Below, piece by piece: positions 1 to 10,859 of a stretch of 19,043 nucleotides of DNA. The stretch is from Waddliaceae bacterium. GTDB taxonomy: Bacteria > Chlamydiota > Chlamydiia > Chlamydiales > SLFE01. The notes under the pieces are model-generated. The model worked only from the letters and a program-made list of their open reading frames with translations. It had not been told where the DNA came from and did not search any database. The position numbers and the translations under genes are program-made. The stretch lies in assembly GCA_963783885.1 (NCBI GenBank), contig CAWAPJ010000023.1, positions 1-19,043 on the forward strand. The letters are read 5' to 3'. Positions within the stretch are counted from its first letter, which is position 1. The number at the start of each line of letters is the position of its first letter.

Positions 1-2
1 TA

Positions 3-122
3 AGGGAATCAGGGTGGCGAAGTGATAGTATGAGCCCCTTTTCGGATTCGCTGAACAACATCGCTGATTTGGAGTCCGAAGTCGGTGATGCGGATGATTC
101 GCGATTTTTTCAAACTTGCTAA
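3..122 (+). CDS. Possible 3' end of an upstream gene (partial, runs in from window edge)
   Basis: Frame 3 is open from the window start (RESGWRSDSMSPFSDSLNNIADLESEVGDADDSRFFQTC) to TAA at 120-122, after which the sequence abruptly becomes AT-rich. No recognisable motif. Confidence 0.35.
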   Translation, partial: RESGWRSDSMSPFSDSLNNIADLESEVGDADDSRFFQTC

Positions 123-204
123 AATTATTTGTAAACAATGTATTCAATAAAATTTAGTAAATATTTAACTTTTAAGTAAATAAACTATATGATATCAATT
201 TATT

Positions 205-1092
205 ATGAATAAAATTTCACAAAACATTAATAGATCTCAGGAACTATAGGTACAGCCCGAAAGCCTTAAAAAACAGGCTGAGCTCGTTTTGGTCGTATCA
301 GAACTTAAGACTGGCATCTTTTCCAACTATCGCGACAGGGCCTATCGTGAACAGTTTAAAGATTTTTCAATCAATGAATCCGGCAAAGAGCAGGATTCTG
401 TTTCAAAAGTCAATGATTTGATCCGTTGCGGCAAATTTTTCTCTTTTGTTTGTGACAACAGACTTCAAACTGCCAAAGATGAAATCATGGCCATTAAAGA
501 CATTAACCTGCGAGCAGAAGTATATGAAAAACTGATCTCGGATGAAATTCACATGAAGTTACCTGATTTCATGAATATATGCCAAGATCTATTGATTGAT
601 AAGATTAAGGTGCTGAGATTGACCGAGCCAATAAAAATGGCACCTCTCCTTTTCGGATAGCCGCGCTGAAAGGCCACCTTCATATCTTAAAATGGCTGGC
701 TGAAAAAGGTGCTGAGATTGACCAAGCCGACAATGGTGGCATAACTCCTCTTTTGATAGCCGCAAACCAAGGCCATCTAGATGTCGTGAAGTGGTTGGCT
801 GAAAAAGGTGCTGAGATTGACCGAGCCAATAAAAATGGCACCACTCCTTTTTGGATAGCCGCTCAAAATGGCCATCTAGATGTCGCGGTGTGGTTGGCTT
901 ACAAAAGGGTCTGAAAAAGAACTAGCCAATGATAAAGTGGGGATGGGGAAAACTGAGGTAAGGCAGCCTTATGCGTTCAATTTTCCCAAAAAAGCAAAGG
1001 TGCTGACTCCTGATGCGAGACTTGGAGATGGACTGTTATTTGAAGATTGATCTTCTGAACCGCCGAAAAAGAAGCATAAGTCAAGAAGTTGA
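205..1092 (+). pseudogene. Disrupted ankyrin-repeat protein (effector-like)
   Basis: ATG at 205 (MNKISQNINRSQEL) is followed by an in-frame TAG at 247-249, then frame 1 continues as the 289..660 ORF. Ankyrin repeats start at 609 in frame 3, immediately after a TAA at 606-608, implying a frameshift. An extra A at ~903-906 returns the ankyrin-like continuation (KGSEKELANDK) to frame 1. A further TGA lies at 1048-1050, then SSEPPKKKHKSRS-stop at 1092. Confidence 0.8.
609..905 (+). repeat. Three tandem 99-bp ankyrin-coding repeats
   Basis: Units start at 609, 708 and 807, each beginning GGTGCTGAGATTGACC. They translate to GAEIDRANKNGTSPFRIAALKGHLHILKWLAEK / GAEIDQADNGGITPLLIAANQGHLDVVKWLAEK / GAEIDRANKNGTTPFWIAAQNGHLDVAVWLAYK, fitting the 33-aa ankyrin consensus G-TPL--AA--GH--VV--L---GA. 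Confidence 0.95.
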
Positions 1093-1920
1093 CCCAAAAC
1101 CCGGTTTTTGGATTTTCACTCCATTCCATTTGACGATCATGTGGTCGGGGTGGAATCTGTTTTTGGCTTCCCGGAGGCCGGGGATGCCGAGGTCTTGTTC
1201 GAGGTTGAAGTAGGTAAAGCCGCCAAGGGCGTGTTTGGCGAACCAGTGGATCATCAGTTCCGAGAGGCCGTGAAAGTCGTGGCTGGTATTTTCCGCGTGG
1301 CCGACGGCTGTCTGGGGGTTGAGTTTTTTGGCAATCATGTATCCCTGGATTTTTCCTTCAATCCGAATAGCCCCGCCAAAGATATCAAAACGATCATAGT
1401 ATTCGAAGAGCCTTTCGGTGGCTCGGCGGTGTTTCGGTTCGAGTTGCAATTTTTTCATAAAAGCAAAACACTCTTGCCGGTTAGAGGAGTCGATAGGTTC
1501 ATAGCGGCACTCGTAGCGGTCCAGGCATCCGTGGACAAGCTGCCGCTTTTTTTGATATTTATGGTCCGGCAGATCTCTTAAGTCCGACACTTTGTAAACA
1601 TAATCGGCGTCATTCGGACTTGTTGAAAATTTCCAGTCGAGGGCATTTGTCGGGAGGGTCGTTCTGACAGCTTTATTTACCGGGAGGCGGTCCAGGACCT
1701 CTTCGAGGGGCAGAGGGCCTGCCGGCGGGCCGAACAGGATCATTTCATTGCTTTCTTCGATCAGAATGGCCAGTGTATCGCTGATTTTACAAAAATATGT
1801 CGGGCGGTCTTGGCTCCACATAAAAAGGTTGCTGAAAGTGCATTCGGAAAAAAGGGGCGGGTATCGGTTAAAATACTCTCTAATTATATCCCTGTTGTCA
1901 AGAGTGAGAGGATGAATCAT
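1081..1920 (-). CDS. DUF2156 / phosphatidylglycerol lysyltransferase C-terminal-like protein (aminoacyl-tRNA-dependent transferase fold), soluble
   Basis: 279 aa with family-typical segments SECTFSNLFMW, DYVY..SDL..L...KYQKKR, FGGAIRIEGKI and EQDLGIPGLREAK...HP. No transmembrane region. Start overlaps the last 23 nt of the upstream NRPS-like gene. Confidence 0.85.
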   Translation of the reverse strand: MIHPLTLDNRDIIREYFNRYPPLFSECTFSNLFMWSQDRPTYFCKISDTLAILIEESNEMILFGPPAGPLPLEEVLDRLPVNKAVRTTLPTNALDWKFSTSPNDADYVYKVSDLRDLPDHKYQKKRQLVHGCLDRYECRYEPIDSSNRQECFAFMKKLQLEPKHRRATERLFEYYDRFDIFGGAIRIEGKIQGYMIAKKLNPQTAVGHAENTSHDFHGLSELMIHWFAKHALGGFTYFNLEQDLGIPGLREAKNRFHPDHMIVKWNGVKIQKPGFGSTS

Positions 1921-4471
1921 CGATTTGTTTTTTTATGATTTGCGCCAGTTGCTTAATGCCCGGAATTTCGAGAATCTCCTTCGAGGTTCCGGGAGCTTTT
2001 TCTATTTTCAGGTTGATGGTGTAGTCTTTCCAGCCCAATGAGGGATCAGAGCGGTATTGATCGGTCTCGTCTTGGGCAATGATAACGGTTAAGGGAATTT
2101 CGCACGATGCCGGCGAGTAGGCTGTCATAGCTTTTTGGAAAATGGCTTTGAGGGATTTGGTGATGATTTCGCCTTCATTGTCGTTTTTGATGCGGAAGAT
2201 ATTGGTCGTTTTTTGCTCAAGCTGCTGCCATCTTGTAATCAGGAAATCCTTTTTTTCCTGAGTTGTAAGTGCAAAAAATTGGGAAGCATTGATTTGCAGA
2301 CGTTTTAGCAAAGCATGCTTTTGGGGAAAGTGGGGAGCATAAGTGTCGATAATGCCGACAAAAGCAATGCCTTTGTTTTTTTCTTTGAAAATCCTTGCCA
2401 TTTCAAATGCAACATAGCTGCCGATGGAAAAGCCCAAAAGATTGAGTTTTCCCGAGGGGCGGGCCTTAAGGATTTTAGCGGCGTAATCCTCGGCCATTTT
2501 TTCTACCGAGTCGTCATCCTCTTCTGCGGGCAAGACAAAAACCGGATAGTCATTTCCCAAAAATTTCGAGAGGAGATAATAAGGATAGATGTCCCCTTCA
2601 AATCCGTGAACGCAAAAAAGCGGAGGCGAGGAGCCATTTTTTTGAAGTTCAATCAGCTCCTGATTAGGCTCCTGGCAAGGGGGCGTGATGATAAGTTCTG
2701 CCATTTTTCCAATAGAATCATGCTTAAGCAGGTGCGCCAGAGAATAACTTTTCCCGAAATGTTGATTAATCCTAAGAAGCAGCCGTTTGACCTGAGCCGA
2801 GGAGGCTTTGAGATCGAAAAGGGTTTTGCAGACTCCTGCGGAACTTAAGTTCATCTCTTCCTTAAAGATCGCCTGCAATTGTTTTTCTATAGGATTATGC
2901 GGAATGTCGTCTTCTTCGGCACCCTCTTCTTCGAGTTGTTGTACGGGAAGCTGCCGGTAGCATATTTTGCCGCTGGCGCCGGTGGGAATTTGATTCAATT
3001 GAATAAACCTTTTGGGCACCATATGCGGCGGCAGCCTTTTTTTGAGCGTTCTTTTAAGGTCCTGCTTGGATGCATGGATCCCTTCAGCCTGAACCCAATA
3101 GGCCACTAGAACCTGCTCGCCGCTGAGTTCAACCAGTTTCACCACGGCGTGGTGGATGGCGGGATGGGAATTCAGGATGCTTTCAACAGCCGAAATTCCG
3201 ATTTTGTCATCTCCTAGGGCTTCCTGCTCATCAATTTTACCTAAATATTCAAGCTTACCGTCATTTCGTTTTCTGACCAAATCTCCGGTTAAAAAGAGCC
3301 TTTCGGGCCTTTTTCCCAGCTGGGTGTGGACGATGAACCGTTTTTGGTTCATCTCATTGTCATGGATATACCCTCTTGCAAGTCCTATTCCGCCAAGGCA
3401 GAGCTGTCCGGCGGATCCGTGCGAAACTTCTTGCATTGTCTTATCCAGGACATAAGCCTTTACGTTGGAAATCGGCTGCCCGATAGGGATGACCAGGGAC
3501 TCTTCGTCGCAGTTGACGGCATACTCTGTCGAGATAATGGTATTTTCCGCAGGGCCGTAGTTGTTGATCAGCGTGAAGGGAAGGGGTTTTTGGGGATGTT
3601 TCTTTAGCTGGTCTCCGCCGGTGAACATGATCCTTAAACTGGTCTCTTTCGGCCAAGCTTGCTGCAGAAGGGTTTCCGTTAGGGGAACCTGAAGATAAAT
3701 GAGGGAGATCCTTTCCTGTTCGATCCAGTTCATCAGGGATTTGGCATTGCCCAGAGTGTCGCCTAGAGGAAATTTTACACAAGCTCCGTTGCAAAGTGCG
3801 GCAGTTGTCTCGACAATCGAAAGGTCTGAGCAGGGCCTGGCCAGAAGCGCGGCGGTATCTTTGCTCGAGAAGGAGTGCCTGCTCCGATACCAAAAGACTA
3901 AATTGACCACTCCCATGTGATTCAGTTCGATTTCATTTTCCTCTGAGAGAACGGTATAGGCGGCGTTTTGCGGCGTGGCAGCTATTTCCAGTGGAGGGAT
4001 GTCATCCGAAAGCGGAGCGGCTAAAAGCTGCTGAAGGGAAAAAGAGGGGACCTCATCTTGCAGATATCCCGGAACTGGACTTATGCTCGAGAGCAGAAGG
4101 TTCGGCTTCGTTTGTGTGAGAATTTTCGAGATGGTTTGTTTTTGCATCAGAGGATCAATCGGAACATATACGCCCCCTGCTTTCCAGATCCCGAACATAG
4201 CGATGACCATATCCGGTCCCGGGTTGGCAAAAACAGCTATACGCGATTGATGCTGAATGCCTTTTGCAATTATATGTCTGGCGAGAAGGGTTGCTTTATC
4301 ATTGAGGCTTTGAAAAGAAATCGAGGTGTGCGGGGTGGATATCGCGATTTCGCCCGGGAAATGCAATGCGGCATCTTCCAAAAGATGCGGAAGAGTTTTT
4401 TTCTTCAAATCGAGCTGCAGCTCTTCGGGAAGCTGCCCTCGACGCTCCATTGTTAACATACGAACCCCCAC
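1898..4471 (-). CDS. Stand-alone NRPS-like protein (adenylation-carrier-thioesterase, A-T-TE) with degenerate catalytic motifs
   Basis: A domain: WKAGGVYVPIDP (A2), FTGGDQL, NNYGPAENTI (A5), GQLCLGGIGLARGY (A6), FLTGDL (A7), LPPHMVP (A9), SGKI (A10). Carrier-like segment LFDLKASS. TE: PLFCVHG, GFSIG, IIDT. No condensation domain. The true start may be ATG at 4459, which has a G-rich SD-like stretch upstream. Confidence 0.9.
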   Translation of the reverse strand: MGVRMLTMERRGQLPEELQLDLKKKTLPHLLEDAALHFPGEIAISTPHTSISFQSLNDKATLLARHIIAKGIQHQSRIAVFANPGPDMVIAMFGIWKAGGVYVPIDPLMQKQTISKILTQTKPNLLLSSISPVPGYLQDEVPSFSLQQLLAAPLSDDIPPLEIAATPQNAAYTVLSEENEIELNHMGVVNLVFWYRSRHSFSSKDTAALLARPCSDLSIVETTAALCNGACVKFPLGDTLGNAKSLMNWIEQERISLIYLQVPLTETLLQQAWPKETSLRIMFTGGDQLKKHPQKPLPFTLINNYGPAENTIISTEYAVNCDEESLVIPIGQPISNVKAYVLDKTMQEVSHGSAGQLCLGGIGLARGYIHDNEMNQKRFIVHTQLGKRPERLFLTGDLVRKRNDGKLEYLGKIDEQEALGDDKIGISAVESILNSHPAIHHAVVKLVELSGEQVLVAYWVQAEGIHASKQDLKRTLKKRLPPHMVPKRFIQLNQIPTGASGKICYRQLPVQQLEEEGAEEDDIPHNPIEKQLQAIFKEEMNLSSAGVCKTLFDLKASSAQVKRLLLRINQHFGKSYSLAHLLKHDSIGKMAELIITPPCQEPNQELIELQKNGSSPPLFCVHGFEGDIYPYYLLSKFLGNDYPVFVLPAEEDDDSVEKMAEDYAAKILKARPSGKLNLLGFSIGSYVAFEMARIFKEKNKGIAFVGIIDTYAPHFPQKHALLKRLQINASQFFALTTQEKKDFLITRWQQLEQKTTNIFRIKNDNEGEIITKSLKAIFQKAMTAYSPASCEIPLTVIIAQDETDQYRSDPSLGWKDYTINLKIEKAPGTSKEILEIPGIKQLAQIIKKQIDDSSSHS

Positions 4472-4565
4472 CGGTCCGTTTCAATGTAAATTTCAAATCT
4501 AAAAAGTAATATTGTATTTATATCTGACCCATATCATTTCTTTATTTATGTGACAAACTTATGAT
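4472..4565. promoter_or_regulatory. AT-rich divergent promoter region (NRPS-like operon / glycosyltransferase)
   Basis: ~94-bp AT-rich spacer between two divergently oriented starts. Individual -35/-10 boxes cannot be assigned confidently. Confidence 0.5.
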
Positions 4566-6140
4566 ATGATAAACGAAGTAACTATGCCGAGTTTCCGAAA
4601 CAGATCCTTTTGGCTTCTCCTGGGAATCCTTCTGATAAAAGCCGCGATTATGGCCTCAGTTATTCAATTTGGGGGCTTTGATCTGGCTCCCGATGAAGCC
4701 CAATACTGGACATGGAGCCAGAGCCTTGACTGGGGCTACTACAGCAAGCCTCCCGGTATTGCCCTTGAGATCTGGCTGGGAACGAAGATTTTTGGAAATA
4801 CTGTTTTAGGAGTGAGAATCGGCGCTGTTTTCTTATCGATATTCATTTCTTTGTCGGTGTATGCACTTGCATTGGCCTCAGGCCTCACGAAGCGGGGAGC
4901 CTTTTGGGCGGGAGTTGTAAGTGCTTTAACTCCAATGGGATTTTTCGCTTCCTACTATGCAACGACCGATGTCGGCCTCGTCCTTTTTTGGACTCTTGCC
5001 TGCATTCCGCTGGCAAAAGCGCTGAAGGAAAACGAAACGCCCAACTATCTCCTCATAGGGTTGTTCATAGCCATGGGGGCTCTTTTCAAGTGGCCGATTT
5101 ATTTGATTTGGGTTCTGGTTTTTTTTGGGATGATTTCTACCACCGCATTTCGCAAGAGGTCTATTGTTGAAGGACTGCTTGTTTCGCTTCTTGGCCTGCT
5201 CCCTCCTTTGATTTGGAACGCCACGCGCGGATGGCCGACTTTTCAGCATGTCTGGTCGACGATGAGAGGGGGGCACAGCCCCAAAACAGGAGGGCCTTTG
5301 CTTCAGGGAAACTTTTTCGACTTTTTTGGCGCTCAGGCAGCCCTTCTCTCACCGATTTTATTTATATTGCTCCTCGTTGCTTTTGCTATTCTCTTTAGGC
5401 GAAAGCATTTAATTCCTCCTGCGGTCCGATTTTTCGGGTACGCCACTTTTTTCATATTGGCCGTTTATCAGGGTTTTTCCCTTTTTCAAAAAATGCAGGG
5501 GAACTGGTGCGTTTTTGTCTATCCAATGGCTATCGTCTTTTTATGTTGGACCCTAATTGACTACTTGCCTCATGGCAGGCGCTGGATTCGCGGAGGTCTT
5601 GCCTTCTCGCTTTTAATGGTCGCCGCTGTTTTCTCCCTTTCAGCAGTCCAGATCAAGGGAGCTTTTCCCTCCCGTCCCATTCCTCAAAAGTTTAACCGCC
5701 TCAATGAATGCTTAGGGTGGAGCGGCATTGGTTCGGGACTGATTAGGGCAGGCTATGACCCGGAAAAAGATTTTTTGTTTAGCGATAGCTATCAGGGAAC
5801 ATCCCTTTTGAGCTTTTATGCCCCTAGGCAAAAAAGGGCCTACTTTTTTAATTTGAAGCAAAGAAGGCAAAATCAATTCACCTACTGGCCGTCTCTTGCG
5901 GACCAGCAGTTGGGACGTTCAGGATTTTTCGTCGTTTTAGAAGAGTACCCCATAAGAAACCGGACTGAAAATGAAGCGGTTGTTGAATTCGAAGACATTC
6001 TTAAGCCATATTTTAAAACCGTCGGATATGCTGGCATGGTACCTCTTCTCCATATGTATGGAAAGCCCCGCAAGGTAATGCTCATTTACCGTTGCGAAGA
6101 GTATAACGGAGCCCCCTGCGAAACTGTTAATCTGTTTTAA
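4566..6140 (+). CDS. ArnT/PMT_2-family (GT-C) polyprenyl-phosphate-sugar-dependent membrane glycosyltransferase
   Basis: 524 aa with many hydrophobic TM-like segments. N-terminal APDEAQYWTWSQSLDWGYYSKPPG motif, later TTD and FKW motifs, and a soluble C-terminal domain. Alternative start at 4584. Confidence 0.85.
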   Translation: MINEVTMPSFRNRSFWLLLGILLIKAAIMASVIQFGGFDLAPDEAQYWTWSQSLDWGYYSKPPGIALEIWLGTKIFGNTVLGVRIGAVFLSIFISLSVYALALASGLTKRGAFWAGVVSALTPMGFFASYYATTDVGLVLFWTLACIPLAKALKENETPNYLLIGLFIAMGALFKWPIYLIWVLVFFGMISTTAFRKRSIVEGLLVSLLGLLPPLIWNATRGWPTFQHVWSTMRGGHSPKTGGPLLQGNFFDFFGAQAALLSPILFILLLVAFAILFRRKHLIPPAVRFFGYATFFILAVYQGFSLFQKMQGNWCVFVYPMAIVFLCWTLIDYLPHGRRWIRGGLAFSLLMVAAVFSLSAVQIKGAFPSRPIPQKFNRLNECLGWSGIGSGLIRAGYDPEKDFLFSDSYQGTSLLSFYAPRQKRAYFFNLKQRRQNQFTYWPSLADQQLGRSGFFVVLEEYPIRNRTENEAVVEFEDILKPYFKTVGYAGMVPLLHMYGKPRKVMLIYRCEEYNGAPCETVNLF

Positions 6141-7119
6141 CAAGATTTTTCATATCGTTGAAATTACCGTGGAGATATTGTCTTAAGTTGTAGACAAATG
6201 TATTGAAGCTTTGATGCTCCCGGGTTATGGGGTAGATGCTCGACTCGTTGGTGAAAATGACATTGGGGCGTTTCCATAAGGGGCAATCCAGCGAAACAGG
6301 AGGAGAAAAGTGGCAGTCGAGTAAAACTCCTCTGAACTTTCCCGTTTTTTCCGTCTCGGAAAGATCATTGAGATTGATGACAGATCCGTCTCCGAATACT
6401 AAAAGAACCGAATCGTTCTTCATCAGATTTATTTTTTCTTTATTAAACCAGGAGGGTCCCTTTCTTCCTCGCGGCATGGCCAGTGAGACAATGTCGGCTT
6501 CGGGGAGAACATCGACAAGCTGCTCCAAGGAAAAGCATTTTTCGCAATCGGGATGGAATGAGGCGAGCTCTTGTATACCCCAAACTTTAAACCCTTCTAA
6601 GTTAGCTCTTTTGACAATTTCGGTTCCAATCCTTCCCAGTCCGATTTGAAGAAAAATCTTGTCATTGACTTTCCACATTCCTTTTCGTAGCCCTGTTAAG
6701 TCAAGATGCTTAGGATCTCTGGATTCGTTTACCCAGCTAAATAATTTTTTTGAAAAAGCCAGGGCAGCACTGATGGCAAACTCTCCAATTTGGATGAGAT
6801 TTTCCTCTTTGGTCGTCGAGATTAAAATATTTCCTAACGTTTTTATAGCATTGAGGCAGAGATTGTCGAGGTAAGGGGACGGACAATGAATCCAGTGCAA
6901 CTGTGAAACCAGATTGAGTTCCTCTTGCGAAAGTTTGCATCCATAGAGAATCTCGATTTGGCTGCAAGCTTCCACTCCCAGCTCATGGAGTGGTTTTTCT
7001 ATATCGATGGACTGGATGGAGAACTGGGGAAATTCCTTAAAAAGCTGGGTTAATTCTTCCGGTTCAAGCGAATCTCGGATTAAAAGAGTGTTCATCATGG
7101 CGAAAATGCCCTTTTTCAT
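6127..7119 (-). CDS. D-isomer-specific 2-hydroxyacid dehydrogenase family protein, NAD(P)-binding, catalytic residues absent
   Basis: LHWIH, IGEFAISAALAFSKKL, Rossmann GLGRIG, VLPEADIVSLAMP, MKNDSVL and PLWKRPNVIFT follow the family layout. Likely start is ATG 7098 or 7095 (AAGGG upstream). Confidence 0.85.
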   Translation of the reverse strand: MKKGIFAMMNTLLIRDSLEPEELTQLFKEFPQFSIQSIDIEKPLHELGVEACSQIEILYGCKLSQEELNLVSQLHWIHCPSPYLDNLCLNAIKTLGNILISTTKEENLIQIGEFAISAALAFSKKLFSWVNESRDPKHLDLTGLRKGMWKVNDKIFLQIGLGRIGTEIVKRANLEGFKVWGIQELASFHPDCEKCFSLEQLVDVLPEADIVSLAMPRGRKGPSWFNKEKINLMKNDSVLLVFGDGSVINLNDLSETEKTGKFRGVLLDCHFSPPVSLDCPLWKRPNVIFTNESSIYPITREHQSFNTFVYNLRQYLHGNFNDMKNLVKTD

Positions 7120-7203
7120 CCATCTAAGGGGATTTTTTATTTGATTTCAAAGGGTAATTTCAGGTATTCTACTTCTACAGCTAGTAAAATTTAGGAGACA
7201 ATC

Positions 7204-7539
7204 ATGTATGCCATAATCAAAACCGGTGGTAAACAGTATAGAGTGGAAAAAGGCGATATCATCGACGTTGAGCTTTTGGGAGAAGAGGAAGGAGCGGCTG
7301 TTGAGTTTGATGTTCTCCTTGTTCATGACGGTAAAAAAACAGCGATTGGCGAACCGACACTGAGCGACTATGTCGTTAAAGGCGAGTTGGTTGGCGATTC
7401 TGCCGGCCCAAAGGTCAATGCCATGAAGTACAAACGCCGCAAGGGGTACCGCCTCCATTTCGGCCACCGTCAGCATTATACAAGAGTTCAAATCACGGAT
7501 ATTTCCAGTAAGAAGAAGCAGAAGAAGGAAGAGGAGTAA
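7204..7539 (+). CDS. rplU: 50S ribosomal protein L21
   Basis: [14 protein letters not shown]...[31 protein letters not shown] upstream. Short K/E-rich C-terminal tail. Confidence 0.98.
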
Positions 7540-7784
7540 TGGCACATAAGAAAGGTCAGGGATCGACACGAAACGGGAGAGACTCCCATTCTCAAAGATT
7601 GGGAATCAAAGCGGGTTCGGGTCAATTGGTGAAAGCCGGAAGCATCATCGTACGCCAAAGAGGAACGAAGTGGCATCCCGGCACAAATGTTAAGCGAGGC
7701 AAGGATGACACTCTTTTTGCCCTAACCGACGGCATCGTCCGATTCCGCAAATCGAATAAGACTGTCGTCTCGGTCGAAGCTTAA
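7539..7784 (+). CDS. rpmA: 50S ribosomal protein L27
   Basis: [20 protein letters not shown]...[29 protein letters not shown] stop/start overlap with rplU. Short form with no N-terminal extension and no intervening prp gene. Confidence 0.98.
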
Positions 7785-8950: not shown

Positions 8951-9892
8951 CTACTGCCATTTCCAGCAAAAGAGAGTAGACTCGGTTTCGAGATTGATAG
9001 CGATGGCGATGGTAATTTCCCACCCCTGGATAGCCTGAACAGCTTCTTCTCCAAAAACCATCGTGATGAGCCAGATGAAAGATTCATCTAGTTCGGACAG
9101 GTCTGTAAACAGATGCGATTCCTGTATGATTCTGACTTCGTCTCCCGGAGACCAGCCCTGAAGTGCTGCAGATTGAGATGGATCGATGCTCCAGTCTCCT
9201 TCCAATTGGTTGAGAGTCATTGTCAGCGCTTCGTCATTTACCTGTTTCAAAGTTCCGGATAAATACTCTTTTGAATCCACCTCGCGAATTTCACGGCGGT
9301 CAAAGTTGATGAGCGCTTCCTCGCAGAACTGCTGGTCGGATTCCTTATTGTCGTATCTCACGAGGAGAATCTCCTCTCCTTGCTGCCATTCCTCGTACGA
9401 ATCGGGGGCGGGTGAAATGGTATAATAAAGGTCATTGTTTAGAAGGTACAATACAAGATCAATGTCAGGATCGAATAGTGTGAAAAGCTCGTCTTCCGAC
9501 TCGATGAGTTCTGACAGAAAATATTGAAGCGTGCCTATCAAATGATGCTTATGTATTTTTTCGAGATTCAGCGCCTGTTTTGTTGCGTACCCCATGGGAG
9601 AAGCAAAAAAGATTGCGCTGCTTGTTAGGTTGTAGAAAGTGGCTCCGTTTGTGCATTTCACGGTATCTCCTTCGCGGGGAAATGCCTCTGCAGCTGTATA
9701 CTTTCCTTTGACGATTCGCCAGACCGTGCCGTTATCAAGGAGTAAAGCGGTATAAGGCTCTTCTTCCAAATCTGCGTCGGGTAAGCCGCAAAGAACAGCA
9801 GTCACAATATTGGCTTCACAAGGAGGGGTGTCTTCGGCAAATAAAAAGGTTCCCGTTAACAAAAGAAGACAGACGGATAAAAGGCTTTTCAT
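8951..9892 (-). CDS. Secreted acidic hypothetical protein with internal repeats
   Basis: ATG at 9892 follows SD-like GGGAGA and gives a signal-peptide-like N-terminus (MKSLLSVCLLLLTGTFLFA/EDT). The longer 9958 start would overlap the divergent neighbour. Rich in D/E. Confidence 0.75.
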   Translation of the reverse strand: MKSLLSVCLLLLTGTFLFAEDTPPCEANIVTAVLCGLPDADLEEEPYTALLLDNGTVWRIVKGKYTAAEAFPREGDTVKCTNGATFYNLTSSAIFFASPMGYATKQALNLEKIHKHHLIGTLQYFLSELIESEDELFTLFDPDIDLVLYLLNNDLYYTISPAPDSYEEWQQGEEILLVRYDNKESDQQFCEEALINFDRREIREVDSKEYLSGTLKQVNDEALTMTLNQLEGDWSIDPSQSAALQGWSPGDEVRIIQESHLFTDLSELDESFIWLITMVFGEEAVQAIQGWEITIAIAINLETESTLFCWKWQ

Positions 9893-9914
9893 GGTCATTT
9901 CTCCCGGTTTGATG

Positions 9915-9920
9915 TATAAT
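9915..9920 (+). promoter_or_regulatory. Putative sigma70-type -10 box for the PLP enzyme gene
   Basis: Perfect TATAAT 9 nt before ATG 9930. TGGTCA at 9892-9897 lies at 17-bp spacing (4/6 to TTGACA). Confidence 0.45.
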
Positions 9921-9929
9921 AATACCGCT

Positions 9930-10859
9930 ATGATTAATAAGTTACAATCTTTAGTCACCGGTAAGCCTCAAGAAAACTACCCGGTTTCATCCCGTGTTCA
10001 TCGGCTAAACACTATAGATGCTTATGTCAAGCGCGATGATGAGCTGGGTTTCGGGATTTCAGGGTCCAAGATTAGGAAATACCGGTCTCTTATTCCCGAG
10101 TTGAGGCAGTATCGGGAAATTTTTATTATAGCCGGCCCCAATTCCAACCACGCTGCCGGAATCATACAGCTTTTGATTGAAAACGGAATTTCTTATCGTC
10201 TTTTTTTACGAGGCGGCTATGGTAGCGGAATCAACGGGTCCCTGATGAGGCTGATGACTTCCGATTCAAAAATAAGGGTTATTGACAGAAGAGATTGGGG
10301 CAGGGCTTTAGAAATTGCTCGAAACGCGGCAGGTCCGGAAACTTTTGTTTTGCCCGAAGGCGGCTCTGTTGCCCCCTCGCTTCCGGGAGCCCTCACCTTG
10401 CCTCTGGATATCGCCAAAGAGGATATTGAATTCGATCATATTTTTGTTGATGCGGGAACGGGATTGATGGCCATCGCTTTGATTTTGGGGCTTGCCTTTT
10501 TAAGCAGGGAAACAAAAATTCATGTTTTACTTGTCGCTGGCAGCGAAAAGGAATTTTTCGAAAAGCTGCGGTCATTTCATTCCGAGTTCCAGAAAATGTT
10601 TGCAACTATGTGCCCCTTCCCAAAGAATTATCAGCTTTATTATCCGACAAATGCGAAATCATTCGGGTCGACAAACCAAACCCTTTTGAGCGAAATTCAA
10701 ACGATAGCGCAAAAAGAGGGTTTTTTGGTCGACCCGATTTATTCGGGAAAACTGTTTTATGAAGCGAGAAAACTGATTCCTAAGTTAAGCGGCACCAAAC
10801 TGATTATCCACTCAGGGGGCGCCGCCTCGCTATTCGGGTTCTCCTCTTTTACTCTTTGA
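9930..10859 (+). CDS. PLP-dependent D-cysteine desulfhydrase / ACC deaminase family protein
   Basis: [19 protein letters not shown] (PLP lysine), [28 protein letters not shown]. Start placed at ATG 9930 because earlier starts overlap the divergent gene. Confidence 0.85.

Follow-up and report, generated by a model that had tools for sequence, protein, structure and literature searches.

A lineage-restricted gene pair of environmental chlamydiae joins a putative A-T-TE pseudoenzyme to a soluble DUF2156 protein

Introduction

Stand-alone proteins with an adenylation (A), a thiolation or carrier (T) and a thioesterase (TE) domain are known as nonribosomal peptide synthetase (NRPS)-like enzymes of the TdiA/RalA type. 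Here we describe a gene of this A-T-TE order that overlaps a gene for a soluble DUF2156 protein in a Waddliaceae bacterium (contig CAWAPJ010000023.1, assembly GCA_963783885.1). The DNA that was analyzed, hereafter the window, is the entire 19,043-bp contig; the assembly (G000) comprises 2.16 Mb and is 88.9% complete. The two genes form a lineage-restricted module of one family of environmental chlamydiae. Tentatively, and with a confidence somewhat short of even, we read the A-T-TE protein as a relic mini-NRPS turned pseudoenzyme, which would assist an active tandem-GNAT acyltransferase as a non-catalytic partner; the function proposed for the pair is putative.

The A-T-TE protein has its domain order and folds in common with the NRPS termination modules of LgrA (PDB 6MFZ), SrfA-C (2VSQ), EntF (5JA1) and AB3403 (4ZXH), with E-values of 1e-116 to 5e-56 against the PDB chains. 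Unlike these modules, it has lost the P-loop, the A8 motif, the TE histidine and, in half of its clade, the carrier serine. The DUF2156 protein likewise has described relatives. MprF (PDB 4V34-36, 5VRV, 7DUW), ErdS and VlmA have the PF09924 family and the tandem-GNAT fold in common with it, at 12-14% identity in structural alignments, and aminoacyl-tRNA is reported as the donor of these proteins; unlike MprF, the window protein contains neither a flippase nor an aminoacyl-tRNA synthetase domain. BT_3689 of Bacteroides thetaiotaomicron (PDB 2HQY) and HPB8_1270 of Helicobacter pylori are, like the window protein, soluble tandem-GNAT proteins of ~280-300 aa (24-25% identity). One report places acetyl-CoA in the active site of the 2HQY crystal and describes a contribution of HPB8_1270 to the lysine acetylation of RNase J (PMC10700544). 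Neither gene has been reported beside an NRPS-like gene, unlike the pair in the window.

DUF2156 domains also stand beside carrier and TE domains in the trans-acyltransferase polyketide synthases (PKSs) LnmJ, GnmT and WsmR, arranged as ACP-ACP-DUF-SH-TE (ACP, acyl carrier protein), and the LnmJ-type domain is proposed to add thiocysteine onto the ACP-bound chain (PMC3870968, PMC8479088, PMC7618002). The likeness is one of domain context: the LnmJ-type domain is fused in cis, followed by a pyridoxal phosphate-dependent lyase and accompanied by an intact carrier and TE, whereas the window encodes a separate protein and an eroded T-TE. In AcuA-AcsA of Bacillus subtilis a GNAT protein is encoded next to an ANL protein, and the two are reported to form a complex (PMC11255334); AcuA, however, belongs to another GNAT family and has a single domain, the genes are divergently oriented, and the ANL partner is active. 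PacB, Sba18 and Sbb17 are GNAT-fold, aminoacyl-tRNA-dependent transferases that replace an amide-forming step in carrier-based, NRPS-type pathways; all three are Fem-like rather than members of PF09924, and the NRPS partners with which they work are active. All parts of the pair described here thus belong to known families; in the literature searched, mostly without subscription journals, we found no description of the pairing, in line with an initial annotation of this DNA, which knew of no system with this architecture. Among the matches listed on chlamydiae and NRPSs, titles and opening lines of abstracts yielded nothing relevant, and a literature search on inactive A domains returned only ubiquitin-E1 matches.

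Results

The A-T-TE gene (1898..4471, minus strand) encodes 857 aa from a GTG start, or 853 aa from an alternative ATG four codons in, which is the start used in database entry P0123. It overlaps the gene of the soluble tandem-GNAT protein (PF09924/DUF2156, BT_3689/2HQY subfamily; 1081..1920, minus strand; 279 aa) by 23 nt (1898..1920, minus strand), the DUF2156 start codon (ATG, 1920-1918) preceding the A-T-TE stop codon (TGA, 1900-1898). Examining the other five genomes of the same chlamydial family (G001-G005) by open reading frame (ORF) coordinates revealed a same-strand overlap in 5/6 loci, measuring 23 nt in G000, G001 and G003, 29 nt in G002 and 4 nt in G004. A promoter and terminator scan, whose counts were no better than those of shuffled sequences, gave no terminator-like site between the two genes on the minus strand. 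Upstream, a divergent intergenic region of 94 bp (4472..4565, ORF coordinates) separates the A-T-TE gene from a PMT_2 glycosyltransferase gene; it is the presumed promoter region of the pair, and the scan gave a single weak sigma-70-like match (minus strand, 4590-4561), again no better than shuffles. The initial annotation had described two co-oriented genes with a 23-nt overlap, which the ORFs, the Pfam matches and the start and stop positions bear out, and had taken them for one unit, which gains support from adjacency in 6/6 family genomes and overlap in 5/6. The two genes probably form a conserved, translationally coupled unit.

The domain matches of the A-T-TE protein are those of an NRPS module (Pfam AMP-binding, 6.6e-46 in two stretches; AMP-binding_C, 1.7e-09; PP-binding, 3.1e-05; Thioesterase, 5.1e-17), and no Condensation domain was found in it by Pfam. 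In NCBIfam it falls among the NRPS modules, far under all equivalog cut-offs, and the gene carries the annotation 'linear gramicidin synthase' in one public record. The N-terminus of the clade's A-T-TE proteins aligns to the linker between the condensation and A domains of C-A-T-TE relatives. We compared catalytic motifs in a table of ten clade members aligned with six canonical A-T-TE proteins, and in a second alignment of nine clade rows with 22 canonical NRPS sequences. All six canonical A-T-TE proteins retain the P-loop, A8, the carrier serine, the TE nucleophile, the TE histidine and the A10 lysine, and against this background the clade proteins appear to descend from an ordinary termination-type module whose chemistry was lost piecemeal, with all three folds kept by purifying selection.

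The A (ANL) domain (2927..4396, minus strand; residues ~26-515, delimited by the two AMP-binding families and alignment to LgrA, 6mfz) carries a degenerate and shortened A3 P-loop (3920..3958, minus strand; residues 172-184, YTVLSEENEIELN), with a five-residue gap relative to LgrA and the six canonical A-T-TE proteins. Residues 175-180 read LSEENE where canonical sequences have YTSGSTGxPKG, confirming the earlier observation of an A domain without P-loop. The canonical form ((T/S)SG(S/T)TGxPKG) occurs in 0/9 clade members versus 6/6 outgroups, and the lesions are lineage-specific: a five-residue deletion in G000 and G001, a four-residue deletion in G005 and in the clade member P0127, and SDETTGNFKG in G002. 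The A8 motif is remodelled (3179..3226, minus strand; residues 416-431), with QEALGDDKIGISAVES replacing QVKIRGxRIELxEIE and, over the whole hinge and hairpin, GKIDEQEALGDDKIG standing in G000 for GRxDxQVKIRGxRIE. No clade member (0/10) has a canonical A8, and the substitute sequence is itself conserved across 10/10 (Q-E/D-A/S-I/L-G-D...), with K418, R420, G421, E425 and E428 substituted in 9/9 clade rows. The A8 change is common to all clade members, as are E356Q, Y393F and the replacement of the A7 Arg/Lys by Leu, which argues that the A domain was remodelled already in the common ancestor of the clade.

Other A-domain residues persist. G000 retains the Asp of the A7 TGD (D397), the A5 Glu (E309) and the A10 Lys (K502); the first two are present in 9/9 clade rows and the A10 Lys, in an altered flanking motif, in 8/10 members, with Arg in G003 and P0129. 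In the specificity pocket, whose positions we assigned by motif register, the equivalent of Asp235 is Asp in 6/9 and Glu in 3/9, and each genus has its own residues at the remaining five positions that were mapped.

The carrier domain (T or peptidyl carrier protein domain; 2681..2890, minus strand; residues 528-597, Pfam PP-binding; PF00550 match at 2690-2881 in the whole-genome search) has its serine, Ser558 (2798-2800), in the context LKASSA, that is KASS and not GGxS. At this column a serine occurs in 5/10 clade members, the others having Glu (two), Val (one) or Pro (two); G005 and P0127 show the canonical GGxSL motif (GGNSL in G005). The TE domain (1901..2635, minus strand; residues 613-857) is covered by Pfam Thioesterase over profile positions 1-110 of 226. 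In G000 it keeps Ser682 (2426-2428, GFSIG) and Asp709, and the histidine position, 830, is Ser (1982-1984). The TE histidine is found in 22/22 canonical sequences versus 3/9 clade rows, and in 4/10 members of the motif table (G005, G004, P0128 and P0130). The nucleophile serine is confined to the three genomes of genus g1 (G000-G002; 3/10), which also retain the carrier serine, and is replaced by Gly in six members and by Asp in one; the TE Asp is present in 7/10, and nucleophile and histidine together in 0/10. The initial annotation, which had the carrier and TE serines remaining, was therefore right for G000 (S558, S682) and overlooked the loss of the TE histidine (S830). The 22 canonical NRPS sequences have 120 columns with at least 90% identity. 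Of these, 73 are retained in G000, 36 in every one of the nine clade rows and 15 in none of them, the losses being concentrated in A3 and A8. The A3, A8 and TE triad of a functional module were thus not found intact, nor were the active A domain and catalytic TE of an NRPS-like A-T-TE enzyme, and judged by these motifs the protein almost certainly makes no peptide.

These losses coexist with clear constraint. The ORFs are open in 6/6 family genomes, the A-T-TE frame extending over ~2.5 kb at 31-88% identity. Between G000 and G001 the dN/dS of the A-T-TE gene is 0.18 overall (0.19 in the A core, 0.09 in the A subdomain, 0.28 in T, the highest value of the gene, and 0.16 in TE), compared with 0.15 for DUF2156, 0.15 for the neighbouring PMT_2 gene and 0.06 for Obg; between G000 and G002 it is 0.11, with dS near saturation. 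The P-loop deletion is present in G000 as well as in G001, so this constraint postdates it. Conservation is maximal at residues 326-500, including a clade-specific GKRPER-LFLTGD segment conserved in 10/10, and minimal in T and TE. In the AlphaFold2 (AF2) model all three domains are folded (mean pLDDT 84.2). The combination of mosaic catalytic-residue loss and fold-level constraint has the signature of a pseudoenzyme. Mosaic loss and a narrow distribution would also be expected if both genes were relics heading for loss, with no present function. We consider such plain decay very improbable: the 2.5-kb frames are intact in 6/6 genomes over the whole identity range, dN/dS of 0.11-0.18 overall and below 0.3 in each domain resembles that of PMT_2 and comes close to refuting it, and 10/10 members share the remodelled A8 as well as the GKRPER-LFLTGD segment. 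The initial annotation had named dN/dS near 1, frameshifts and restriction to a single genome as signs that would speak against its proposal; what we found were values of 0.09-0.28, intact frames and six genomes.

The DUF2156 protein, by comparison, is covered end to end over its 279 aa by LPG_synthase_C/PF09924 (8.8e-29; 100.9 bits against a gathering cut-off of 27.5) and keeps all 26 invariant columns of a 27-sequence alignment of chlamydiae, Desulfobacterota and archaea, in which it is itself one row. It is probably the sole remaining catalytic component of the pair. Its AF2 model (pLDDT 91.7) shows no long hydrophobic helices and nothing resembling the N-terminal flippase of MprF. In the PDB the family profile matched 2HQY (BT_3689) with 3.9e-73 and reached none of the MprF structures at E<=1. 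Foldseek gave TM-scores of 0.87 for 2hqy, to which the model aligns along its full length, 0.64-0.68 for MprF synthase domains, 0.57-0.65 for FemX, 0.56-0.59 for Sbb17/Sba18 and 0.43-0.48 for the acetyl-CoA tandem GNAT from clavulanate biosynthesis. The premise of the initial annotation, that the protein uses aminoacyl-tRNA as donor, is unsafe for this subfamily: because the protein belongs to the soluble BT_3689/2HQY subfamily, whose closest solved member is reported with acetyl-CoA, such a donor is a family-level guess by analogy. A basic helix, KYQKKRQ, lies at what we take to be the position of the tRNA-binding helix. Acyl-CoA and aminoacyl-tRNA are both candidate acyl donors.

Alternatively, the two proteins might be an enzyme-substrate or regulator pair resembling AcuA-AcsA, in which DUF2156, as a protein lysine acyltransferase, would modify the ANL-fold A-T-TE protein, perhaps on the A10 lysine. 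The persistence of this lysine in 8/10 members despite the altered motif around it fits such a role, as do the acetyl-CoA reported in 2HQY and the implication of HPB8_1270 in RNase J acetylation (PMC10700544), and the GNAT AcuA is reported both to acetylate and to complex the adjacently encoded ANL enzyme AcsA (PMC11255334). However, the residue is Arg in G003 and P0129, it is hard to see why a lost adenylation reaction should be regulated, AcuA has a single GNAT domain and comes from a different family, and the acetyltransferase role of 2HQY-type proteins rests on one in vivo study. We regard this explanation as distinctly unlikely.

According to the initial annotation, DUF2156 could supply the carrier with an aminoacyl group taken from tRNA, which would stand in for adenylation or condensation. 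The genetic complement bears on this proposal. Neither Condensation nor MbtH domains, nor an Sfp-type 4'-phosphopantetheinyl transferase (PPTase), were found in the window or in the whole G000 assembly (88.9% complete), where the ACPS family matched just one ORF, of the AcpS type and 123 aa long, on a different contig; the earlier statement that the window lacks all three is thereby upheld. A third PP-binding match (G000:C3:24968-25111) lies inside a 910-aa ORF, which is probably related to ~900-aa ANL-domain ORFs found in many genomes of the order. The gene that separates the pair in G005 (L040:4567-5259; 230 aa) encodes an Sfp-type PPTase (AASDHPPT_N, 1e-09; ACPS, 6.6e-07) with the motifs GIDVE and WTQTEAYLK. 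The W-x-x-K-E motif of this protein reads WTQTE, the Lys being replaced by Thr.

In a restricted form, loading in trans would concern only the members that keep the serine (genus g1, G005 and P0127), where DUF2156 would load a holo T domain from aminoacyl-tRNA or acyl-CoA, with a non-canonical release. Serine in 5/10 members, the GGxSL motif of G005 and P0127 and the PPTase inside the G005 operon speak for it; so do the predicted fold of DUF2156, next closest to the aminoacyl-tRNA transferases MprF, Sbb17/Sba18 and FemX (TM 0.56-0.68), and the DUF2156 domains that follow ACPs in LnmJ-type PKSs and are proposed to act on ACP-bound chains (PMC3870968, PMC8479088, PMC7618002). Yet the carrier serine is gone in the other 5/10 (Glu, Val or Pro) though both genes are constrained, constraint on the protein is weakest in the T domain (dN/dS 0.28, lowest conservation), no Sfp-type PPTase was found in G000-G004, and the complete Ser/His pair of the TE occurs in no member (Ser in 3/10, His in 4/10, both in 0/10). 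A conserved function cannot rest on residues absent from half of the orthologues. Loading by DUF2156 would need a kept carrier serine and a kept release domain; neither is kept, so that this mechanism lacks support, and trans-loading is ranked below the non-catalytic partner. Even in its restricted form we hold it to be decidedly improbable. A working carrier system, in which DUF2156 would charge or acylate the adenylation-dead A-T-TE protein in trans, on its phosphopantetheine arm or on a side chain and with aminoacyl-tRNA or acyl-CoA as donor, and of which the G005 PPTase would be the witness, has in our view an outside chance at best; if true, a GNAT transferase would have taken over from adenylation in a module of NRPS type, at least where the serine is kept.

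Among 61 genomes of the order, full-length A-T-TE orthologues were detected in no more than six, all from the family to which the window belongs and together representing three genera (88, 69, 49, 39 and 31% identity to G000). In 6/6 a co-oriented DUF2156 orthologue adjoins the gene (92, 67, 56, 51 and 38% identity), with the intervening gene in G005, and a clade A-T-TE gene without DUF2156 was never seen; chance does not account for the pairing. In the database, the two entries of P0126/P0008, P0127/P0007, P0128/P0009 and P0129/P0010 agree in the length of their longest contig, which suggests three further co-located metagenomic pairs, P0129/P0010 being nearly identical to G003. A metagenome scan with the clade alignment returned three loci, one apparently that of G005, one 100% identical to that of G004 and one an unrelated weak ANL match, and no new pair. 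The co-occurrence check that the initial annotation had called for thus showed the pair adjacent and co-oriented throughout the family and, among 80 DUF2156 loci, an A-T-TE neighbour only at the two chlamydial ones (the G005 and G004 contigs). In a maximum likelihood (ML) tree, the DUF2156 proteins of the family, an orthologue from another chlamydial family (G016) and two metagenomic sequences form a clade with 100/100 support. This clade adjoins sequences of Desulfobacterota, Spirochaetia, Verrucomicrobiota and Kiritimatiellae, and a Brocadiaceae sequence branches immediately outside. A further eight DUF2156 proteins from chlamydiae fall in a distant clade. The lone G016 gene (L043:7961-8788) lies behind a DUF6268-like gene on a branch of 1.96 changes per column.

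This distribution allows for the two genes being unrelated neighbours, in which case the A-T-TE protein would have an independent, possibly new function and the overlap would reflect compact gene packing. DUF2156 does stand alone in G016, its relatives do so in 78/78 non-chlamydial loci, and the other flanking genes represent lineage context only (PMT_2 in 35/61 genomes, the downstream HExxH gene in 58/61). Nevertheless, gene order, adjacency and orientation are kept in 6/6 genomes of three genera despite rearrangement of the flanks (a two-gene insertion in G003, the PPTase in G005), and A-T-TE was never seen without DUF2156 in these six genomes, three further metagenomic pairs being likely. 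Mere neighbourhood thus appears unlikely to us. Two flanking genes were considered as a third component and rejected: the PMT_2 glycosyltransferase (4566-6140), which occurs in 35/61 genomes of the order and does not adjoin DUF2156 outside the family, and the downstream gene for a ~295-aa HExxH membrane protein, a core gene (58/61) with no link to DUF2156 elsewhere. As both are widespread in chlamydiae and unlinked to DUF2156 elsewhere, the module is the pair itself, lying between them. Conserved neighbours of DUF2156 relatives elsewhere (by eye IspH, FtsY and Lon-like) reflected lineage-specific synteny only and gave no functional clue.

The HExxH protein (L038:7043-7945 in G001; orthologue G000:C2:144650-145537) has the motif GHELCHVGR, two hydrophobic C-terminal helices and no Pfam family, and looks like an uncharacterised core chlamydial membrane metallopeptidase. 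G003 alone has two extra genes between DUF2156 and the HExxH gene (L041:6301-8533), one for a Na+/H+ exchanger with a TrkA_N domain and one of the PsiE family. In the other five family genomes the HExxH gene follows DUF2156; in G000 it is on a different contig, and the start of the window (1-1080, especially 600-950) holds ankyrin-repeat coding fragments in broken frames (such as GHLDVVKWLAEKGAEIDRANKNGTTPFWIAAQNGHLDV, as judged by eye), so that the contig probably breaks within a repeat-rich insertion. Elsewhere in the window, ORFs of 140 aa (7147-7569, minus strand) and 335 aa (8951-9958, minus strand) have no Pfam family; the latter overlaps the TTG start annotated for a PALP-domain ORF (9810-10859, plus strand) by ~150 nt, and one start is probably wrong. 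The G001 orthologue of the window's 2-hydroxyacid dehydrogenase (6127-7119) is apparently split into overlapping ORFs of 172 and 232 aa (L038:13185-14199), which tblastn matched separately to residues 1-196 and 122-330 of the query; the split may stem from a frameshift, from partial duplication or from faulty assembly.

Discussion

We propose, tentatively as stated above, that the ancestor of the module was a small, working carrier-dependent pathway, which would have comprised an A-T-TE protein, an Sfp-type PPTase and a GNAT enzyme. The A domain would have been remodelled first, with the A8 change now common to all members, and the residues of the carrier and thioesterase would then have drifted separately in each lineage. 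Today, the A-T-TE protein may act as a non-catalytic scaffold, adaptor or regulator of the DUF2156 enzyme. We infer a physical partnership of the two proteins from the conserved overlap and translational coupling only. The initial annotation had offered a non-catalytic ligand-sensing or scaffold complex as its fallback: a scaffold fits the data better than loading does, and an intact ligand pocket common to the clade finds no support, the specificity positions being variable.

Several observations weigh against this proposal. Genus g1 keeps both the carrier serine and the TE serine, and G002 has a near-full P-loop (SDETTGNFKG); residual chemistry may therefore persist in some members of the clade, and AcpS might modify Ser558. 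The PPTase lies between the pair in 1/6 genomes only, and by simple parsimony on the tree one gain, in the lineage of G005, would be preferred to three losses, which makes its presence in the ancestor conjectural. With the G005 PPTase as query, no match was obtained in G000-G004, in a search made without a positive control and, for G000, in an assembly 88.9% complete. A complex prediction for A-T-TE residues 1-612 with DUF2156, run with own alignments and leaving out the TE domain, scored 0.00, which speaks neither for nor against an interaction. An A-T-TE neighbour was found at 0/78 non-chlamydial DUF2156 loci (of the 80 loci, with flanks of up to 7 kb), and in G016 (84% complete), where A-T-TE was not found with this query, the DUF2156 orthologue stands alone, showing that the GNAT enzyme can exist without the partner. 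The confidence that we assign to all readings leaves a remainder, which belongs to explanations beyond those given here.

Since only a handful of chlamydial lineages, all uncultured, carry the module, its general importance is limited. For genome mining it counsels caution, as the label 'linear gramicidin synthase' sits on a gene whose product almost certainly builds no peptide. The pair offers a tractable two-protein system for the donor and the acceptor of tandem-GNAT proteins and for possible uses of a 'dead' synthetase scaffold. If the A-T-TE protein is indeed the non-catalytic partner of DUF2156, it would represent a clear example from nature of an NRPS module that purifying selection has preserved in its entirety (A, T and TE) as a pseudoenzyme, and it would provide the first genomic partner for the large and functionally obscure family of soluble 2HQY-type DUF2156 proteins.

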